A stretch of DNA of 64,000 nt from an uncultured Candidatus Saccharibacteria bacterium (GCA_964362215.1 CAYIDJ010000002.1:911-64910); one strand, 5' to 3'. Counted from the stretch's first letter, positions 55,870-64,000 are shown. A program made the numbers and translations. The notes: generated from the letters alone by a model not told the origin.

Positions 55870-55943
55870 TGCGGGATCGTCTAATGGTAGGACATCGCCC
55901 TTTGGAGGCGAGTATCTAGGTTCGAATCCTAGTCCCGCAGCCA
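55870..55943 (+). tRNA. tRNA-Gln (anticodon UUG), CCA encoded
   Basis: Acceptor tgcggga/tcccgca, anticodon loop CU-UUG-GA, T arm ctagg-ttcgaat-cctag, then 3-prime gcca. Confidence 0.9.
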
Positions 55944-56018: not shown

Positions 56019-56630
56019 ATGGAAGAAATGAAACCAATCGAAAACAAAGAAGTAGAGTTGTTAGTTTCTGATCTAGAAACTCTTTTTGCTCGACTTGCTA
56101 AACTGAAAGCAGAAAAAGGGACTCTATGGTTTGGTATTAGCGGAAGTTGGAGAAAAACAAACGAGCAAGTCGAGCAAGGAGTGCGCGAAGCTGTTCGCAA
56201 AATAATCAAGCGTGGAGATGGAATTGTTTCTGGCGGTGCGCTAAATGTAGATTATTTTGCGACTGACGAAGCACTAAAACTCAATCCTACCGCAGATAGA
56301 ATAAAAATATTTCTTCCTGTTGTTTTAGATTTATATGCGGCTCACTACCGAAAAAGAGCGACAGAGGGCGTTATAACTTCTGAACAAGCAGAAGCCCTCG
56401 TCGCTCAACTAGAAAGTTTGAGAGCCACAAACTCCGACGCCCTCATTGGAAATCCACAAAATACTATAGTAGACACAAAAACTTATTTTGAACGGAATAC
56501 AGATGTGGTAAGTGCTTCAGACGCTCTCGTTGGATTTCAGGTAAATGAGAGCGAGGGTGTCGGGGACACAGCCAAGAAGGCGATTGAGCAAGGCAAACCG
56601 GTTTGTTTAGAAAAGTTTATAATTGAATAG
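56019..56630 (+). CDS. SLOG-superfamily-like (DprA/YpsA/DUF2493-type Rossmannoid) protein
   Basis: Visibly AT-rich ORF. 'GISGSWR', 'IVSGGALNVDYFA' (compare GGAxGxD), 'SASDALVGFQ...GVGDTAKKAIEQGKPV' follow the SLOG strand-loop pattern. Assigned from motif memory only. Confidence 0.45.
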   Translation: MEEMKPIENKEVELLVSDLETLFARLAKLKAEKGTLWFGISGSWRKTNEQVEQGVREAVRKIIKRGDGIVSGGALNVDYFATDEALKLNPTADRIKIFLPVVLDLYAAHYRKRATEGVITSEQAEALVAQLESLRATNSDALIGNPQNTIVDTKTYFERNTDVVSASDALVGFQVNESEGVGDTAKKAIEQGKPVCLEKFIIE

Positions 56631-56819: not shown

Positions 56820-57239
56820 ATGGATATAAAAAATAAGTTGAGGGAACTTGGTTTGAATCCAGACAATTCTGTTGTAATCGGGTCCGGTATTTTGAATGCT
56901 TTGAATATTAGGGAAAGTGAAGATATTGATATAGTGGTGTCAATCGATAAGTACGAGAGCTTAGGCAGGGATAGCCGTTTTAAGAAAAAGGAAAATCATG
57001 GACGAGAAGTGCTCGCGGATGATATTTTTGAGATTGGAACCAGTTGGACGGTGTTAGATAAAGATTGGAAATTTGATGATTTTTTAGATTACTCGGATGT
57101 TATAGATGGGGTTAGATATAATACTTTACAGTTTTTATTGGATGTTAAGCGCCGATGGATCGCTGATGGGGATATACGTCAAAAAGATATAGATGACGTG
57201 AAATTGATGGAAAATTATTTGAGAGAAATGCAGAAATAA
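56820..57239 (+). CDS. Minimal Pol-beta-superfamily nucleotidyltransferase (139 aa)
   Basis: 'VVIGSGILNALNIRESEDIDIVV' is hG[GS]x9-13Dh[DE]h. A short helical C-terminus follows. No HEPN-like partner is adjacent. Confidence 0.6.
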   Translation: MDIKNKLRELGLNPDNSVVIGSGILNALNIRESEDIDIVVSIDKYESLGRDSRFKKKENHGREVLADDIFEIGTSWTVLDKDWKFDDFLDYSDVIDGVRYNTLQFLLDVKRRWIADGDIRQKDIDDVKLMENYLREMQK

Positions 57240-57254
57240 GATATCGTTGTAAAT

Positions 57255-57800
57255 ATGAAAAAAATAATTTTGTGGATAGTGGTTTTGGGGGTGGTGGGGA
57301 CAGGAGTTTGGGTGTTTGGAGGCAGGTGGCAGAAGAGTGAACAAGGGGGAGAGGGGAGTACGCAGGCGGATTACCAAAATATAGCGTACGAGATTGAAGG
57401 AAAGATGATTAAACTTATGGACGGCGCGGCTCAAACAGAAGCGGCACCGGGATCGGCGTCAATGATAACCACAAAGTATTTTGGGAATAAGGCGGAAGGG
57501 GATTTGAACGGGGACGGGTTGGCGGATGTTGTTTTTATAATCACGCAGGATGGCGGAGGGAGCGGCACGTTTTACTACGCGGTGGCGGCATTGAAGACAG
57601 ACGCGGGAGGGTACATAGGCACGAACGCGGTTTTACTGGGGGATAGAATTGCTCCGCAGACGACGGAGTTTCATGATGGAACAGTGGTAGTGAACTACGC
57701 GGAGCGAAATCCGGACGAGCCGATGACAGTGAGTCCGTCGGTGGGAGTGTCAAAATATTTGAAGGTTGAGGAGGGAAAATTAGTAATTAGTGAACAGTAA
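57255..57800 (+). CDS. Membrane-anchored/secreted hypothetical protein with FG-GAP/VCBS-like DxNGDGxxD motif
   Basis: N-terminal TM MKKIILWIVVLGVVGTGVWVF and 'GDLNGDGLADVVFI'. GC looks like the genome background. Confidence 0.5.
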   Translation: MKKIILWIVVLGVVGTGVWVFGGRWQKSEQGGEGSTQADYQNIAYEIEGKMIKLMDGAAQTEAAPGSASMITTKYFGNKAEGDLNGDGLADVVFIITQDGGGSGTFYYAVAALKTDAGGYIGTNAVLLGDRIAPQTTEFHDGTVVVNYAERNPDEPMTVSPSVGVSKYLKVEEGKLVISEQ

Positions 57801-58191
57801 CGAGTAAATAAGGAAAGGACAGAAAAGTCATTCTGACGTTACGCCCGAACATTGGAATGACACAAGGAAGTTTGAACTTTGGGGTGGTTTGTGGGAAAAT
57901 AGGCGATAGTAGAGATTTATAAAAGAATAAAGAAAGAGAGGATTTGGCGATGGTAGGTTTAGTTAATCCAGCAGGTCCGCCTGTTTTGGGGGTTTTTAAG
58001 GTGACGTATCCAAATCCAATAAAGGAGATACCGAGCGGGATTAAGCGGTTAGAGGGTCCTTTTGCGCCGGAGAGTTCGCCTTCACAAATTATTATCGCTG
58101 ACACAAGGCAGTTTCGGCGTTGGCCGGTGCTTCATCCGTACAAGGGGCATAATTTAGATGTCCTCGCGTGAAATAAATAAGGATAACGCCG

Positions 58192-58229
58192 CCCGCCTAA
58201 ATTTTTTCCTAAGCAAAAATTTAGGCGGG
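58192..58229 (+). terminator. Terminator-like hairpin of the CCCGCC-AT-rich family
   Basis: cccgcctaaatttttt-cctaag-caaaaatttaggcggg, then tttttgttt. Confidence 0.6.
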
Positions 58230-58351
58230 TTTTTGTTTATTTATGTATTGCCGAATTCAGGCAGTTTTTGTGATAAAATAAATTCCAATGAAAATAATGG
58301 CGAGAATATAAAAACTTTAACTCGGGCGGGGTTTGTATTATTATTTAGTTA

Positions 58352-61300
58352 ATGCCGGAAAGATTTCCCGACCGTCCGGAAAGAAATGAAGAAAACCTAA
58401 AGAAGGCGGGGTTAGAGTTGGAAAAAGAGGAAAAATCAGAAAAAGAGAAGATTTCGGAAGAAGTAATTCCGGAAGAAAAAACGCCCACGGAGATAGAAAA
58501 AGAAGTTATATTAAACAGTTTGAGTTTAGAAACTGAGCTTGAAAAAGACGCGACAAAAGAATTTAAAAAAGAAAGAAATGAAGAGTGGGAAGAGAAAAAG
58601 GATAATCTGACAATAACCGAGCTTAAAGAAACGGTAGAATTTAATGAATCACAAATAAAGAATCTATTGCATTACGGAGATTCTTTCTTTCACTTATCAG
58701 AAGAAGAGGGGGAGAAGATAGAGAAACTAAACATAAACTTGCCGGAAGAGACGGAGGAGGTTTATTTTTCCCTGAATAAAATAAAAGATTTTATGGAGAA
58801 GGCGCAGAATTATCGCCAAAAAGCTTTTAATCTGATCGGAATAACGGAAGAAGCAGAAGGTGTTTACATAAATAAGCAAGCGCAAGAAGGAGGATGGTCC
58901 TCTTTTCAGGAATTAAAAGAAGAGCATGAGCGACTCGAGGAAGAGATGATGAATTTAGACGAGAAACTAACTTATAACAAATCCTTGAAAAAGTTTATTT
59001 TTGATAAAGAATACCGACAAGAGAGGAAACAGGATAAGCAAAAATTTAAGGAAGTAAAAAAAGAGTACGAGCACAATGAAAAACTATTCCATCCATTAAG
59101 CTATTATAATTTTAGTATTAGAGAACAGATAAGAGGATTTAACCAACTTTTGGATATGTATGGACAAAATACTAAATATTTTACTGAAAAAATTGGAGAT
59201 AAATTAAGAGAAAAATTCATTCAGTATATAAAAAATAAACAAAAGGAAATGGCGCCGGCGGATGAGTTTAAAGATTATGATTTAAGTTTATGGGGACAAA
59301 ATTTTTCTAAGGTAAAAAACTGTTTAACAATTGAAAAAAGCTTAAAGGAGGTGATAACCGCGATGGAGGATAGGGAAAAATGGTATGTTTTTGATATTAA
59401 TAAATTAAAAGGAAGTATGGTTAAGAGTTCAATAAGTCAACACATTATTGAATTTTTTAAAGATGTTTCGTTTAATGACTGGGAGAAGTTTTGCGCGGAT
59501 AATGAAAACACCCTGACCGAAGAAATACGAAAGACAGTCAGCGGAGTTATAACGGATAGAATTCTGGAAACCAGAGAAAAATTTGACGATGGCCGTTTGC
59601 AGAGAGAGGCGGATAGCCTTAGTAACAGTTCTTTTGTTTTTGCTGATAAAGAAACAATGCCGATAGCCGTTATTAATTTACTTAATATTAGTGATTATTA
59701 TGATCGGGTTATGGTGGAAAATAGAGCAGCCGCTGTTTTTGAAAAGTTTAAAGAGGAGAATTTTGACGTTCCGGGAATAAAGAAAATTGTAAAAGCAAAG
59801 GAGATGGTTAATTCTGTTGGTGAATTTTTAAGAGGGGAAAGAGAAATGTATACTCGGTATTTATTAGCAGATGGTTTACTGGAGGCCGGTTCTTTTTACT
59901 TAAAATCAAACGATCCACGAATGCAGGTTTTGGGGGCTTTGTCTTTGCGTGAAATAGACAGATATGAAGGTGCCGACTCAAATAGATCCGATGAGGTTTA
60001 TAAAATGTTTAATAATGTTTATAAAGAAAAAAATCTTAATGAACGGGTAATAGGGGCCATTGGAAAAGTAGCCTTAGATGAGGTATGGTACACAAAAAAT
60101 TTTTATGCCAAGCAAATAGCTTTTAATTTAATTAAAGATTATGACCGTTTGTCTAATGTTAACCAGTGGAAAATAAAGGAGGCGGCGCCCAGGATGGTAG
60201 GATTGTTTGTTTCTAAAAATGAAGTTAGTAATATAAACGAAGAAGAAGCGGAAGTTTTAGCTAAAGTTCTTGAAATAGAACCAAAGGACCTTATAAAAAC
60301 AATTAATTTAATTAATTTGGCAATTAATACTCTTAACGTCAACCATGATTACAGCCCGTTAGAATTTAAACTTTATCATCGTTTGGCTAAAATTGAAGAT
60401 GCGGAAGATTTTTTGGTGAAATTAAATAATCTGGGTTGTCATTTTAGAATAGACAGCACGGATAAATTATTGAAAATACACGAAAACAAAGAGGAATTCA
60501 TAAGTAGAGTTAAACAATTAAAAAATTCCCTTAGTGATTCCGCCTCTTTTAATTTCATAGAGAGAGATGAAGATGTTTATAAAATAACCGATAGCAATCT
60601 TTTAGAAATTTTAGGCAGTTTTAAATCAGATAAGGGTTTGCAGAATTTTGTTCTAAACAATCTTGATAAAATCTTGGCTATTACTTCAGAAAGAAGAGAG
60701 AATTACATTAAAATTCTTGATAAAATAGAACATTCTCCCTCGCAAGAAATTCAAAAACTTAAAAACCAGATTCTTTCTGAAATTGTTTCCACTGATAATC
60801 CGGAGATATCTTATGAAAAGATAGAGCAAGTATTTTTAAAGAACAATCTGCCGGCGGTAGGGAAAATTTACCGCATTTTCGAGACGCTTTATCCGGCATA
60901 TAAAATAAAAAGTTTGATAAATTATCAATCCAGTCCGGTTTTACAGAAAGCCGGACCGACCAGACGGCGCCATATTTTTTACCAAGATTTATTAAAAACG
61001 CATATCCGTTCGGCTAACCGTTCACTTAGAGAATACGCGGAAGCTTTTTTAAGCGGCGAGGGAGTATTGGCTAAAGCGGAGCGGGACGGATTTGATAATT
61101 TAGCAGGAGAAGAAAAAGAGCGGTTAAAATATTTCTTCGGACGATTGAATACATTATTTTTAAGTTCTTCGCTGGGAGAAAACATCAAGGCGGTTGAAAG
61201 AGGTTTATCTTTAGAAGACGAATATAAAAGATTAAAGATAAGTTTGGTGGTTAAAGAAGGACAAACCGTTAAGGAGAGGGTGGAAGAAATGTTTTTGCGA

Positions 61301-62863
61301 CCGGCCGGGCTTGATTCCCTGGGAGCTCTGCTCGATGAAATGGCGGAAGCTAAAAGAGAAGCCCACGAACGAAATATGGAATTGGCTAAAAATCTTAAGG
61401 CCGGTGATCTTAATTTATCTCCGGGAGATATACTGAAGGGGGTTAATGAGAAATTTATTAACTTAATTTTACAAAATGGTTCCGTTTCCAAAGAGTTTTT
61501 AGGCGCGGATACGCCGGGTTCGGATAGTACTCCTTTTGACACGGACGTCAGTGTAGTTTTAAAGCAGGACGTGGAAAACGGAAAAAATAACGCCTTTAAA
61601 AATTCAATGGCGGCTTCTTTTGGTAATCTTGTCTTAGCCATACGCGACCGGGGGCAATTCCAAGTTACAAGACGGCATGGCCAAGAACTTGGCCGCCAGC
61701 AAACAGATAACGGTAAAATGGAACTTTTTAGCACTGGCGGGGGAGGACAACATTACGGCGTCCGTACCGGGTTTCCCTCCACGGAGATAGATTTTATTAT
61801 CGCCAGAGATTCTTTTCTTGAAAAAGGTTATGGCTACAACGAGGGGAAGGTGGAAGAATTGTATTATGAAATAGCCCAAAACGGATTTTACATACCGGTA
61901 ACAGATGAGGAAGGAGAAATTGTTTTCACTCCGGAAATGTACAACGAGTACCGAAAAACATTTGACGGTTTGGACCGTTTTGACGGTAATCCATTGGAAA
62001 TTAAAAGATTGTCAACTGGCGATTCTTATTTACAACAGGTTAAAGAAATAACTAAGGAAATGAAAAAAGACAGAAAAGAGGTGGTAAATTTATCCGACGG
62101 GATTATCAAAGAAGTCCGCCGAGCTTTAGGTGTTTTGGGAATAACTTTTAAGGATAAATATGATCCGGGAATATTGGGGGCGGAACTTTTAGATATCGGC
62201 TCTACCGGGCGGGGAACCAATATGCCAGGCGATTATGATTTTGATTTTACTTTAAAATTAGATGATAAGGATTTTGAATCCGCGGAGGTGATAGCTAAAA
62301 ATATAAAATCGGAAATGGAGTTTCAGGAGGATAAATCTCATCCGGAGGCAAGCGGCTATTATCAGTTGCGTTTGATGGGAATTACTAAAATCGGAAAAAT
62401 TAAATTAAAAGAATCACTTGACCTTGATATTGGATTTGTTAAAAAATCGGATTTGGCGGTTTTTGGTTCTCATAATGCCATTGAAGAAAAATTAGAGTGG
62501 ATAAAAGATAACTTGGGAGAAGACGCCTATTGGGAAGTTTTGGGTAATATTGTCTTGGCTAAAAAAATCCTTAAAGAGGGCGGGGCTTATAAAAGGGTAG
62601 AGCAAGGGGGGTTTGGCGGTATCGGGACGGAAAATTGGATATTGGCTAATTCCGGTAATTTGGAAGAAGCGTTTAGAACTTTCCGCGGGGCCGCTTATGA
62701 AAATGGAAAAATTATTTCCTTTGATGAATTTATGAAAAAATATAAAATTTTTAACGCCGGTATGAATATTAAACATCTTTTCCACGATAACTATATTAAA
62801 AATATGACGGAGAGCGGATATGCTGCTTTTGTTAAAACGGCTGATGAGTTTTTATCTAAATAA
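58352..62863 (+). CDS. Giant 1503-aa protein: E/K-rich N-terminus, long helical middle, C-terminal class-I (archaeal CCA/PAP-like) nucleotidyltransferase domain
   Basis: A single uninterrupted ORF that is strongly AT-rich. aa 1283-1298 GSTGRGTNMPGDYDFD fits the Pol-beta motif. 'LDLDIGF' is a candidate third-acid strand. 'KILKEGGAYKRVEQGGFGGIGTENWIL' resembles the GFSGY..ELL neck motif. No signal peptide or TM. Confidence 0.7.
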   Translation: MPERFPDRPERNEENLKKAGLELEKEEKSEKEKISEEVIPEEKTPTEIEKEVILNSLSLETELEKDATKEFKKERNEEWEEKKDNLTITELKETVEFNESQIKNLLHYGDSFFHLSEEEGEKIEKLNINLPEETEEVYFSLNKIKDFMEKAQNYRQKAFNLIGITEEAEGVYINKQAQEGGWSSFQELKEEHERLEEEMMNLDEKLTYNKSLKKFIFDKEYRQERKQDKQKFKEVKKEYEHNEKLFHPLSYYNFSIREQIRGFNQLLDMYGQNTKYFTEKIGDKLREKFIQYIKNKQKEMAPADEFKDYDLSLWGQNFSKVKNCLTIEKSLKEVITAMEDREKWYVFDINKLKGSMVKSSISQHIIEFFKDVSFNDWEKFCADNENTLTEEIRKTVSGVITDRILETREKFDDGRLQREADSLSNSSFVFADKETMPIAVINLLNISDYYDRVMVENRAAAVFEKFKEENFDVPGIKKIVKAKEMVNSVGEFLRGEREMYTRYLLADGLLEAGSFYLKSNDPRMQVLGALSLREIDRYEGADSNRSDEVYKMFNNVYKEKNLNERVIGAIGKVALDEVWYTKNFYAKQIAFNLIKDYDRLSNVNQWKIKEAAPRMVGLFVSKNEVSNINEEEAEVLAKVLEIEPKDLIKTINLINLAINTLNVNHDYSPLEFKLYHRLAKIEDAEDFLVKLNNLGCHFRIDSTDKLLKIHENKEEFISRVKQLKNSLSDSASFNFIERDEDVYKITDSNLLEILGSFKSDKGLQNFVLNNLDKILAITSERRENYIKILDKIEHSPSQEIQKLKNQILSEIVSTDNPEISYEKIEQVFLKNNLPAVGKIYRIFETLYPAYKIKSLINYQSSPVLQKAGPTRRRHIFYQDLLKTHIRSANRSLREYAEAFLSGEGVLAKAERDGFDNLAGEEKERLKYFFGRLNTLFLSSSLGENIKAVERGLSLEDEYKRLKISLVVKEGQTVKERVEEMFLRPAGLDSLGALLDEMAEAKREAHERNMELAKNLKAGDLNLSPGDILKGVNEKFINLILQNGSVSKEFLGADTPGSDSTPFDTDVSVVLKQDVENGKNNAFKNSMAASFGNLVLAIRDRGQFQVTRRHGQELGRQQTDNGKMELFSTGGGGQHYGVRTGFPSTEIDFIIARDSFLEKGYGYNEGKVEELYYEIAQNGFYIPVTDEEGEIVFTPEMYNEYRKTFDGLDRFDGNPLEIKRLSTGDSYLQQVKEITKEMKKDRKEVVNLSDGIIKEVRRALGVLGITFKDKYDPGILGAELLDIGSTGRGTNMPGDYDFDFTLKLDDKDFESAEVIAKNIKSEMEFQEDKSHPEASGYYQLRLMGITKIGKIKLKESLDLDIGFVKKSDLAVFGSHNAIEEKLEWIKDNLGEDAYWEVLGNIVLAKKILKEGGAYKRVEQGGFGGIGTENWILANSGNLEEAFRTFRGAAYENGKIISFDEFMKKYKIFNAGMNIKHLFHDNYIKNMTESGYAAFVKTADEFLSK

Positions 62864-62866
62864 CAG

Positions 62867-63085
62867 ATGAAAATTTTGGTTAAGGTAAAGGCGAGAGCGA
62901 AGGCGGAGAAGGTGGTGGAGATGGGCGGCTGGTATTTTGAGGTGTGGGTGAAAGAGCCGCCGATTGAGGGGAGAGCGAATGAGGCGGTGGAGAGGGCGCT
63001 GGCGGATTATTTTGGCGTGGCCAAATCCAAAGTGAATATCGTTTCGGGACAGACGAGCCGGAAGAAGGTGGTGGAGATTGGTTAA
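62867..63085 (+). CDS. DUF167 (YggU-like) protein
   Basis: 'VKEPPIEGRANEAVERALADYFGVAKSKVNIVSGQTSRKKVVEI' matches the UPF0235 pattern. Confidence 0.8.
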   Translation: MKILVKVKARAKAEKVVEMGGWYFEVWVKEPPIEGRANEAVERALADYFGVAKSKVNIVSGQTSRKKVVEIG

Positions 63086-63100
63086 GTTAGGAGGATAGAT

Positions 63101-63258
63101 AGCATCTCGTCAACATACTCTCCCTACCGTCCATTCCCCCAGCGAGGGAATGGACTACGCCTCGGTCTCGCTCCCGAGCACTCAAATTAAGAAATACGAG
63201 TGTTCGGACCATGCCCACTCGACCTCGGATGCGCGCTCAAGTATATTGGCGAGATGCT
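63101..63258. repeat. Nested palindromic element, family B copy 2
   Basis: agcatctcgtcaacatactc pairs with aagtatattggcgagatgct. It shares ...atactctccctaccgtccattcccccagcgagggaatggactacgcctcg... and ...ctcggatgcgcgctcaagtatatt with 16174-16368. Confidence 0.85.
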
Positions 63259-63281
63259 TTTTTGATTTACCTATGAACCTT

Positions 63282-63350
63282 GAGGTAAGAGTTAGACATG
63301 GTGTAACCCGCCTATGTTTTACTAAGTAAAACATAGGCGGGTCTTTATTA
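63282..63350 (+). terminator. Conserved 3-prime module (GAGGTAAGAGTTAGACATGGTGTAACCCGCC hairpin + T tract)
   Basis: acccgcctatgtttta-ctaag-taaaacataggcgggt (63306-63342), then ctttatta. Confidence 0.65.
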
Positions 63351-63392
63351 TTAAAATTTGTGCGGCAGGGAAGATTGGGTGATAATAAATAA

Positions 63393-64000
63393 ATGGAAAT
63401 TGGGGATTGGGTGAGGAATAATATATTTGAAGCGCCGACTAAACTTGGGAAGTTGAGGGTGGTGGTGGTGGGGGTGGGAATAGTGGCCGCGATAATAGCG
63501 GCGGTTTTTTATATAAACTTTTGGGCGGCGCCGGAGAAGGGCGCGGAGGTAGAACGGTTTGTGGTGCCGATAGGGTATGACAGCCAGCAGGTGGCGGTAA
63601 GGTTGAAAGAGGAGGGATTTATTAAGAGTGAGACCGGCTGGAAAATAGCGATATGGATGAGAGGGGGAGAAATAGCGCCGGGCGGATATAAGCTGTCAAA
63701 ATCAATTTCGGCTTGGCAGATAGCCGGAATATTGAAGGGCGCATCTTATATGAAATGGGTGGTGATTCCGGAAGGGATGCGAAAAGAAGAGACGGCGGAA
63801 ATACTGGCGCGAGAACTCGGCTGGAGCGAGGCCGAAAAAGAAAGGTGGATTACAGTGGATACGGCAATTGATTATGACCACACGGAAGGAGTTTATTTTC
63901 CGGACACGTATCTTATATCAACAGAAGAAGAGCTGGCGATGGTAGCGGAAAGAATGCGAACAACATTCAATGAAAAGTTCGCGCCATACGCGGCGGAGGC
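63393..64000 (+). CDS. mltG: Endolytic murein transglycosylase MltG (YceG-like), 3-prime end beyond window
   Basis: Absent from ORF track (no stop in the window). Translating by hand from ATG 63393 gives an N-terminal TM, then 'VPIGYDSQQVAVRLKEEGFI', 'GGYKLSKS', 'VVIPEGMRKEE', 'EGVYFPDTY'. Confidence 0.8.
   Translation, partial: MEIGDWVRNNIFEAPTKLGKLRVVVVGVGIVAAIIAAVFYINFWAAPEKGAEVERFVVPIGYDSQQVAVRLKEEGFIKSETGWKIAIWMRGGEIAPGGYKLSKSISAWQIAGILKGASYMKWVVIPEGMRKEETAEILARELGWSEAEKERWITVDTAIDYDHTEGVYFPDTYLISTEEELAMVAERMRTTFNEKFAPYAAE

Follow-up and report, generated by a model that had tools for sequence, protein, structure and literature searches.

The described enzymes nearest in structure to the C-terminal domain of the protein considered here are the archaeal class-I CCA-adding enzymes. 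The A. fulgidus representative (1r89 and 4x4n) possesses a head and a neck whose folds are similar to the nucleotidyltransferase (NTase) domain of a giant protein encoded by an uncultured Candidatus Saccharibacteria bacterium, probably from groundwater. The corresponding open reading frame (ORF) occupies positions 58352..62863 on the + strand (which also carries the parts of the gene given below and the hairpin and promoter candidate upstream of it) of a 64,000-nucleotide stretch of DNA (GCA_964362215.1, CAYIDJ010000002.1:911-64910), which is here termed the window and is numbered from its first letter. The two proteins share 16-18% identity with no HMMER or Pfam match, and the tRNA-binding body and tail of the archaeal enzyme are absent from the giant protein, as 216 of the 436 target residues align; the giant ORF ends approximately 145 aa past the third carboxylate, and this remainder consists of helical-lobe sequence only. 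In contrast to the archaeal CCA enzyme, the giant protein is bacterial, is fused to an ADP-ribosyltransferase (ART) fold and carries an N-terminal extension of more than 1000 aa.

Other characterised systems show partial resemblances. The non-canonical poly(A)/poly(U) polymerases Cid1, TUT4/7, GLD-2, PAP-alpha and CutA belong to eukaryotic families of which none is ART-fused, and the giant protein lacks a PAP_assoc sequence match. CD-NTases, OAS and cGAS attain lower structural scores, and PADLOC models of the cyclic oligonucleotide-based anti-phage signalling system (CBASS) gave no match. An adjacent Cap effector, as found in CBASS, is also lacking: the neighbours of the giant gene in the window are a DUF167 gene and a terminator, and no neighbour recurs in the 80 loci compared (the best 80 of 394 loci identified in GTDB; 178 homologs were retrieved for alignments). 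Concerning the ART-like domain, only the NAD+ lobe of Tpt1/KptA is matched (the 120-residue chain 7yw4_A), its winged-helix RNA lobe being missing, and no PF01885 match was obtained in 46 family members. The giant protein is similarly devoid of a DarT Pfam match, its architecture differs completely from that of DarT, the ssDNA ADP-ribosyltransferase of the DarTG toxin-antitoxin pair, and no DarG macrodomain neighbour is present in the window or in the 80 loci. Single-polypeptide defence proteins of the DSR2 type combine a large helical sensor with an NAD+-using effector (SIR2). The overall logic would be a common one, namely a large, variable and non-enzymatic region attached to a conserved effector in a stand-alone mobile gene; unlike in DSR2-type proteins, the effector of the giant protein is ART-like plus NTase rather than SIR2, and no defence-island context was seen.

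The giant gene is real. As the sequence-only reading of the window had stated, it constitutes an uninterrupted 4.5-kb frame, running from ATG to TAA for 1503 aa; at the ORF's own GC content of 36% (a stop probability of 0.083 per codon) the chance of 1503 stop-free codons is approximately 1e-56, and the other five frames of the same span contain 49-188 stops. A database entry (P0181) is identical to the encoded protein, homologs exist, and the DNA is independently present in two replicate assemblies belonging to another sample set (the 0.1 µm filter fraction from a Hainich aquifer well), one of which (L088) matches window positions 58346-64000 at 100% identity and the other (L089) positions 58210-63395 with a single mismatch corresponding to S601Y. 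Since the same DNA was assembled independently in replicates, the possibility that the assembly is chimeric or frameshifted can in practice be dismissed. The two contigs start 6 nt and 142 nt upstream of the ORF start, respectively, which could reflect strain-level heterogeneity at the junction or low coverage near hairpins. A Pol-beta fold at the C-terminus and a frame intact in independent assemblies, two of the three points whose failure was to refute the sequence-only reading, were both found.

The ORF had also been described as visibly richer in AT than the flanking genes, and this is borne out by a per-kb GC content of 0.31-0.43 as against approximately 0.49 for the window. Its GC content at third codon positions (GC3) is 0.335, compared to a mean of 0.558 (standard deviation 0.064) among the remaining + strand ORFs that reach 150 aa (n = 40), and is thus 3.5 standard deviations low. 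Because GC3 is low throughout the ORF (0.27-0.41 over its whole length), the AT-richness is not merely the consequence of a protein rich in Lys, Glu and Asn; it indicates a foreign origin, and this codon composition suggests that the gene was horizontally acquired. The encoded protein is predicted to be cytoplasmic and contains neither a signal peptide nor a transmembrane (TM) segment, as originally noted, the top Kyte-Doolittle 19-mer score being 1.07.

An AlphaFold2 model of aa 1001-1503, computed from a 60-sequence alignment, attained a predicted local distance difference test score (pLDDT) of 91.6 and a predicted template modelling score (pTM) of 0.90, the latter indicating that two domains, connected through a helix of 35 residues (a linker or 'spine'; aa 1227-1261; 62030..62134; DSSP 227-261 in the model), are fixed relative to each other. 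The C-terminal domain is, as modelled, a Pol-beta nucleotidyltransferase at the level of the fold and superposes on solved members. When this domain was compared with the PDB using Foldseek, the A. fulgidus class-I CCA-adding enzyme filled the top eight places (E 2e-7), with Cid1, NF90/NF45, TUT7, GLD-2, OAS, CdnC and cGAS ranking below it, and structure alignments over both lobes extended across 216-235 residues of CCA, poly(A) polymerase (PAP), Cid1 and terminal uridylyltransferase (TUT) structures. The catalytic lobe (aa ~1265-1370; 62144..62461) conforms to the Pol-beta signature hG[GS]-x9-13-Dh[DE]h in the form G1283-S1284-x11-D1296-F-D1298, and the third metal-binding carboxylate, D1359, lies within LDLDIGF (aa 1356-1362); the GS...DxD motif (nt 62198-62245) and LDLDIGF are situated where the sequence-only reading had placed them. 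The helical second lobe, which is of the 'neck' type seen in PAP, OAS and CCA enzymes (aa ~1373-1503; 62468..62860), was delimited by structure alignment and conservation, and its conserved residues comprise N1399, K1404, Y1413, K1414 and the motif GGFGGIGxENW. The stretch GGFGGIGTENWIL is present as reported, its end being at nt 62644 rather than 62638, a slip of 6 nt.

G1283, S1284, D1296, D1298 and E1427 (the Glu of GGFGGIGxENW) are invariant in all 178 relatives, while D1359 is retained in 177, K1404 in 177 and Y1413 in 176 of them. With its conserved NTase residues complete, the enzyme is expected to be active, and the model points to a template-independent NTase of the class-I-CCA/PAP/TUTase/OAS type with a full metal-binding triad. 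The proposal of a class-I CCA/PAP-like NTase, made from sequence alone, is therefore upheld at the fold level, both by the leading Foldseek matches and by the GS/DxD residues and D1359 being kept in 177-178 of the 178 relatives; membership of the class-I CCA enzymes proper must be abandoned, given the missing tRNA-binding body and tail and the lack of a sequence-level match. A marginal match to HEPN_RiboL-PSP (PF18735) in two of ten relatives (30.9 and 19.2 bits), located on the helical lobe of the NTase, was judged spurious; the R-x4-6-H motif is not conserved in the alignment consensus of this lobe and the giant protein itself has no PF18735 match.

Upstream of the NTase, the protein had been considered an unrecognisable body of 1250 aa, helical and without motifs from aa 300 to 1250. 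This description fails for aa 1014-1215 (61391..61996), which are predicted to adopt a mixed alpha/beta fold and represent a second conserved, enzyme-like domain. Its split beta-sheet superposes on solved ARTs, the nearest being the nucleic-acid-directed Tpt1/KptA and DarT, and the ART toxins DarT, RhsP2 and Tre are among the fold matches. The Gly-rich block FSTGGGG...ARD, correctly assigned to aa 1126-1153 in the sequence-only reading, forms part of this domain. Pfam ART models produced no match in 46 members even at E<=10, and a profile of the domain found none among PDB sequences, indicating that it represents a new ART-fold family at the sequence level.

The domain harbours a series of near-invariant motifs: K1029 in GDxxKG on beta1 (retained in 166/168 relatives); E1048 in KEFLG (168/170); D1058, T1060, P1061, D1063 and D1065 in SDxTPxDTD (D1058 in 167/170 and D1065 in 169/170); E1124 in ELF (163/172); and H1134, R1138 and T1139 in HYGxRTG (H1134 in 169/172 and R1138 in 171/172). 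The beta2 position is variable, with S1044 being found in 120/170. An hhalign comparison with E. coli KptA, which was not significant (E 0.057) and serves as a consistency check only, gave a single local match that puts ILKGVNEKFINLILQNGSVSKE on a KptA segment, with K1029 at the beta1 His (KptA His105) and a Phe at the catalytic Arg125 of KptA. Judging from the order of secondary-structure elements in the model, E1124 would lie on the strand that bears the catalytic Glu in ARTs. The conserved residues suggest an ART-like site that is maintained in a non-canonical form and that may use NAD+. Since the active-site-like residue sets of both domains are conserved in more than about 95% of the 178 relatives, we infer two working sites rather than decayed domains, and both appear to be under strong purifying selection. 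One divergent relative (P0179) has a complete NTase and no ART signature residue left, which identifies the NTase as the obligatory core.

Conservation along the ORF, assessed by BLASTP coverage and unfiltered phmmer (--max) against the 178 family proteins, follows a steep gradient: aa 1-350 are matched by none of these relatives, aa 300-700 by four, aa 600-800 by 69, aa 700-1010 by 159 and the C-terminal 500 aa by all 178. Over the first ~700 aa, relatives that are 55-58% identical in the module have nothing detectable in common. The hypervariable N-terminal body (aa 1-699; 58352..60448), recognised by phmmer, BLASTP coverage and composition, is E/K-rich over its first ~300 aa, as had been noted (E+K making up 45% of aa 1-100 and 30% of aa 101-300), and has no internal repeats in a self-comparison and no recognisable domain in Pfam, NCBIfam, PADLOC or PHROGs. 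It is followed by a family-conserved region without an assigned fold (aa ~700-1010; 60449..61381), which is defined by those 159 relatives and by the alignment consensus, features the motifs SPSQEIQ, NLPxVGK and DLLxxHxxSxNxSL, and has no PDB or Pfam match. We are highly confident in the resulting domain anatomy of ~700 aa essentially without detectable relatives, ~300 conserved aa and a rigid ART-NTase module of ~490 aa. By analogy, an N-terminus that cannot be aligned, grading into a C-terminus with 57% identity, resembles the combination of a rapidly evolving recognition part with a conserved effector.

Certain family members consist of the module alone (P0120, 493 aa; P0166, 482 aa), and in one Firmicutes lineage the protein is split between a 1015-aa gene and a 550-aa gene, the upstream 1015-aa protein (in L003) ending in the equivalent of aa ~790-940; these stand-alone members and the split version establish the C-terminal module as an autonomous unit. 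At the other extreme, P0077 comprises 3069 aa, ORFs of more than 4460 aa fill the fetched loci L051 (1-13494) and L052 (1-13386), and in L051, L052, L054 (1-9429; 3142 aa) and L045 (1-8634; 2877 aa) the ART-NTase module lies inside ORFs that are larger still. Relatives of 2000-4500 aa were scanned for extra domains and no credible Pfam domain was found.

The giant protein is not an orphan: its family, which is large and undescribed, has its centre in the Candidate Phyla Radiation (CPR). The full-length protein finds nothing credible in Pfam, NCBIfam, PADLOC, PHROGs or PDB-sequence searches: Pfam and NCBIfam return no match at E<=10, PADLOC returns one spurious Csf4 match on the N-terminus at E<=10, and the family profile against PDB sequences yields spurious coiled-coil matches only. 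An exhaustive HMMER search with aa 1001-1503, on the other hand, recovered 927 cluster representatives at E<=1e-3 (605 at E<=1e-30), so that the family comprises at least 927 clusters at 50% identity, this being a lower bound; in nearly all of the best 150 representatives the match is located at the extreme C-terminus of a protein of 1000-3000 aa. A word-indexed search with the full-length, low-complexity query had retrieved four relatives at ~30% identity, a severe under-count, and the same type of search with aa 100-700 gave no match, a negative that is uninformative since the identical entry P0001 was missed too.

The distribution is patchy, with 394 loci found among 185,579 GTDB species representatives. 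The best 80 loci belong mostly to Patescibacteria/CPR (Parcu-, Uhr-, Magasanik-, Morani-, Zambryski-, Taylor-, Komeili-, Sacchari-, Peri-, Gracili-, Gottesman- and Collierbacteria), while a second clade, at 35-37% identity, is found in uncultured low-GC gut Bacilli and Clostridia. The family also occurs in metagenome-assembled genomes (MAGs) labelled Micavibrio and Pseudobdellovibrionaceae, such taxonomic labels being unreliable in MAGs. Public records for its proteins read 'hypothetical protein' only, and a description of an ART+NTase fusion or of this CPR giant-protein family was not encountered in the searchable literature, PMC9503650 included, the coverage of which is incomplete; within the same limits, the sequence-only statement that no characterised family has this architecture continues to hold. 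Both folds are known; what the libraries queried do not contain is the sequence family itself, the signature of its ART-like active site, the fusion of ART and NTase, and an architecture this large and hypervariable.

The giant gene has the look of an expressed gene and is a stand-alone accessory gene of foreign codon composition. Clustering of flanking ORFs at the 80 loci revealed no neighbour common to more than four loci, and Pfam and PADLOC scans of 108 immediately flanking genes produced a housekeeping cross-section in which no family occurs in more than two loci; the flanking genes are often translation-related, as is expected in small genomes. A conserved operon partner in CPR was rejected on the basis of these analyses, as was an origin from phages or plasmids, there being no tblastn match in INPHARED or PLSDB and none in 2.9 million IMG/VR contigs. 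The closest relative (L006 7211-10382, equal to L007; 58% module identity) resides on a complete 0.8-Mb chromosome and is only 793 aa long, its gene starting inside or beside an insertion sequence (IS; rve) transposase gene. It looks like an IS-truncated copy, suggesting that the gene is dispensable. In gut Firmicutes (L003/L004/L005 1-10614) the 1015-aa and 550-aa genes are followed by a conserved 151-aa gene, and this split version is cargo of an element that also carries a serine recombinase, a Mob_Pre relaxase, a Bro-N protein and TnpV. On at least 170 contigs (323 index blocks) the 550-aa protein recurs in identical form, a distribution indicative of a recent and wide spread.

A small protein of 115-151 aa, with the motif Y-x-R-A-Y-x-E-V-L-E-I-L-K-Y-x-P ... 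Y-N-P-D-N-I-F, is encoded at L001 7831-8178, L002 4475-4921, L003 9664-10119 and L071 1921-2370. Its gene lies directly downstream in L001, L002 and L003-5 and ~3.5 kb upstream in L071. This partner is limited to the low-GC subclade, being absent from the window and from the CPR loci, and could represent an immunity or regulatory partner.

Based on these findings, we tentatively propose, with a probability of about 35%, that the giant protein is a stand-alone, horizontally mobile conflict or effector protein, in which the variable body would target or regulate a module that modifies nucleic-acid ends and depends on both NAD+ and NTPs. Because the nearest structures of both halves are RNA- or DNA-directed enzymes, the module would be expected to act on nucleic-acid ends or nucleotides, and the C-terminal module may thus be envisaged as a dual transferase on the termini of nucleic acids, most likely RNA, or on nucleotides. 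The NTase lobe would use nucleoside triphosphates (NTPs) for untemplated nucleotide addition to a 3'-OH, and the ART-like lobe would use NAD+ for ADP-ribosylation of a phosphate or base on the same substrate or, alternatively, would bind a ligand of the NAD+/ADP-ribose type and so gate the NTase. Target recognition or sensing would be entrusted to the hypervariable N-terminal body, and the whole would operate as a conflict or effector system contained in one polypeptide, disabling or marking RNA either in the producer once triggered or in a partner cell. Its accessory and mobile character is supported by the low GC3, the lack of a conserved neighbour, the IS-adjacent relative and the mobile cargo of Firmicutes.

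A number of observations weigh against this proposal. Defence models of PADLOC are not enriched among the flanking genes, and no immunity or antitoxin partner was found at the CPR loci. A Sec-type N-terminus was found in none of 136 full-length relatives, of which only six have a TM-like segment, so that delivery into another cell would call for an as yet unknown route. None of the canonical ART triads (H-Y-E, R-S-E or H-H-hydrophobic) was recovered, a Lys apparently standing at the His/Arg position. Finally, the divergence of the N-terminal body could stem from relaxed constraint on a low-complexity scaffold rather than from diversifying selection.

The competing explanations partly overlap with one another. 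A tenable if doubtful one holds that only the NTase is catalytic and that the ART-fold domain binds a substrate or regulates (its ligand being an RNA end, NAD+, ADP-ribose or a nucleotide), in the manner of the RNA-binding domains of PAP and CCA enzymes. The canonical triad that was not recovered, with Lys apparently in place of the beta1 His/Arg, speaks for this view, as does P0179 with its complete NTase and erased ART signature; it accounts poorly for the approximately ten polar residues of the ART-like domain (E1048, D1065, E1124, H1134 and R1138 among them) that are kept in about >95% of 170 relatives, as conservation of this kind is seen more typically at active sites than at binding surfaces, and for the apparent position of E1124 on the strand of the catalytic Glu.

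Alternatively, the protein might be a signal synthase, i.e. a second-messenger-producing enzyme similar to OAS, cGAS and CD-NTases, in which the ART-like domain holds NAD+ or ADP-ribose as acceptor or co-substrate and the N-terminal body acts as a sensor switch. We consider this unlikely, as none of the PADLOC CBASS cyclase models matches at E<=10, the 80 loci have no conserved effector or receptor gene beside the family gene, and RNA-acting NTases outscored CD-NTases in both fold searches.

We regard with similar scepticism the notion of a host- or prey-directed effector, moved from an episymbiont or predator into its partner, where the module would modify RNA or DNA and to whose delivery or targets the body would adapt. 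The concentration of the family in the presumably episymbiotic CPR lineages, its presence in Micavibrio- and Pseudobdellovibrionaceae-labelled MAGs and the ART toxins among the fold matches are in keeping with such a role. Nevertheless, the near-absence of TM-like segments and the complete absence of Sec-type N-termini in the 136 relatives argue against it, no secretion-system or immunity gene is linked to the family in the 80 loci, the second large clade rides a mobilisable transposon in gut Bacilli and Clostridia, and the taxonomic labels of MAGs are unreliable.

A stronger version of our proposal, which strikes us as quite improbable, envisages a coupled two-step machine in which both sites work on one substrate, with this single-protein system serving as a main immune or attack device of CPR bacteria. 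The NTase might extend NAD+ or ADP-ribose, as OAS can extend NAD+, after which the ART-like domain would transfer the ADP-ribose-linked oligonucleotide to a target; in a second version, RNA ends would be ADP-ribosylated and then tailed. CPR bacteria largely lack known defence systems, and the two-step arrangement, combined with the hypervariable body for sensing or targeting, would, if true, represent a previously unrecognised single-protein conflict system.

Very little speaks for a housekeeping function in RNA repair or maturation, in which a Tpt1-like 2'-phosphotransferase and a CCA/PAP-like 3'-end polymerase would be coupled to heal and rebuild the ends of tRNAs or other RNAs in reduced genomes. 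The two nearest structures, Tpt1 and the class-I CCA enzyme, are indeed tRNA-end enzymes, and translation-related flanking genes are frequent, though expected in small genomes. Such a role is difficult to reconcile with a patchy occurrence of 394 loci among 185,579 species representatives, a foreign codon composition, a closest relative disrupted by an IS and the absence of both the N-terminal RNA lobe of Tpt1 and the tRNA-binding body and tail of the CCA enzyme; the Arg-His-Arg-Arg tetrad was not recovered in the one alignable, statistically weak motif, and a hypervariable extension of 700-4000 aa would not be expected. Lastly, an artefact, be it a chimeric assembly, a pseudogene or an open AT-rich non-coding insert, is effectively refuted despite the low coverage of the replicate assemblies (4-7x) and their contig breaks at 58346 and 58210, in view of the ~1e-56 chance of the open frame, the identical sequence in independent assemblies, the hundreds of homologs with invariant catalytic residues and the high-confidence structure models.

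CPR/Patescibacteria account for a large share of bacterial diversity; most of their large genes are uncharacterised, and little is known of how they wage conflict with hosts and phages. An abundant family (the >=927 clusters and 394 GTDB loci given above) has escaped every curated profile library queried. Large families can also be overlooked when word-indexed searches are queried with giant proteins of low complexity, and negatives from such queries are unreliable. ARTs and Pol-beta NTases, both of which are central to RNA biology and immunity, are here joined in a fixed arrangement and, if active, the ART-like domain would represent a new sequence family of ARTs whose active site is non-canonical. 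Since the 490-aa module folds confidently and occurs naturally alone, the protein is directly testable.

Turning to the flanks of the giant gene, a strong intrinsic-terminator-like hairpin at 58191..58230, with a stem of 16 bp and a T-run after it, forms the end of the non-coding stretch upstream and marks the 5' boundary of the transcription unit. A weak promoter candidate, TTAACT-16 nt-TATTAT, lies at 58317..58344 and matches the consensus, such matches being no commoner than in shuffled sequence. Its TATTAT (58339-58344) corresponds to the -10-like box of the sequence-only reading, which is present and ends 7 nt, not 10 nt, upstream of the ATG. No Shine-Dalgarno sequence occurs within 20 nt upstream of the start codon, again as claimed, and this feature together with the proximity of TATTAT hints at a leaderless or near-leaderless mRNA. 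Downstream, a DUF167/YggU gene begins 3 nt past the stop codon. The other genes nearby, which are unrelated, encode a DprA/SLOG-like protein, an unannotated 139-aa ORF, a secreted 181-aa protein and YceG/MltG.

Positions 57800-58230 represent ~430 nt without a convincing ORF, ending in the terminator hairpin. No credible Rfam match (gathering threshold or E<=1) was obtained for this stretch, the fold z-score of which is only -1.3, and it could be a decayed gene, a long 3' untranslated region or an RNA of a new type. A tRNA-Gln gene is located at 55870-55943, with two genes of foreign-looking GC3 nearby (56019-56630 and 56820-57239). The DprA/SLOG-like protein next to the tRNA-Gln (PF02481, 32.6 bits) has a GC3 of 0.309 and the unannotated 139-aa ORF one of 0.357, the GSGILNALNIRESEDIDIVV of the latter fitting a minimal Pol-beta NTase signature. 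No att-like direct repeats were found around the giant gene or the tRNA-Gln; in terms of composition, the low-GC3 pair and the giant ORF suggest a tRNA-proximal zone of repeated gene acquisition.

Across the window (1-64000), the GC skew of the + strand is unusually positive (0.08-0.49 per kb, typically ~0.3), almost all long ORFs are on the + strand, and the coding strand is purine- and G-rich throughout. The window also contains a class-A bacterial RNase P RNA at 47568-48063 (214.5 bits), which at 496 nt is longer than the 367-position model and must therefore carry sizeable insertions.

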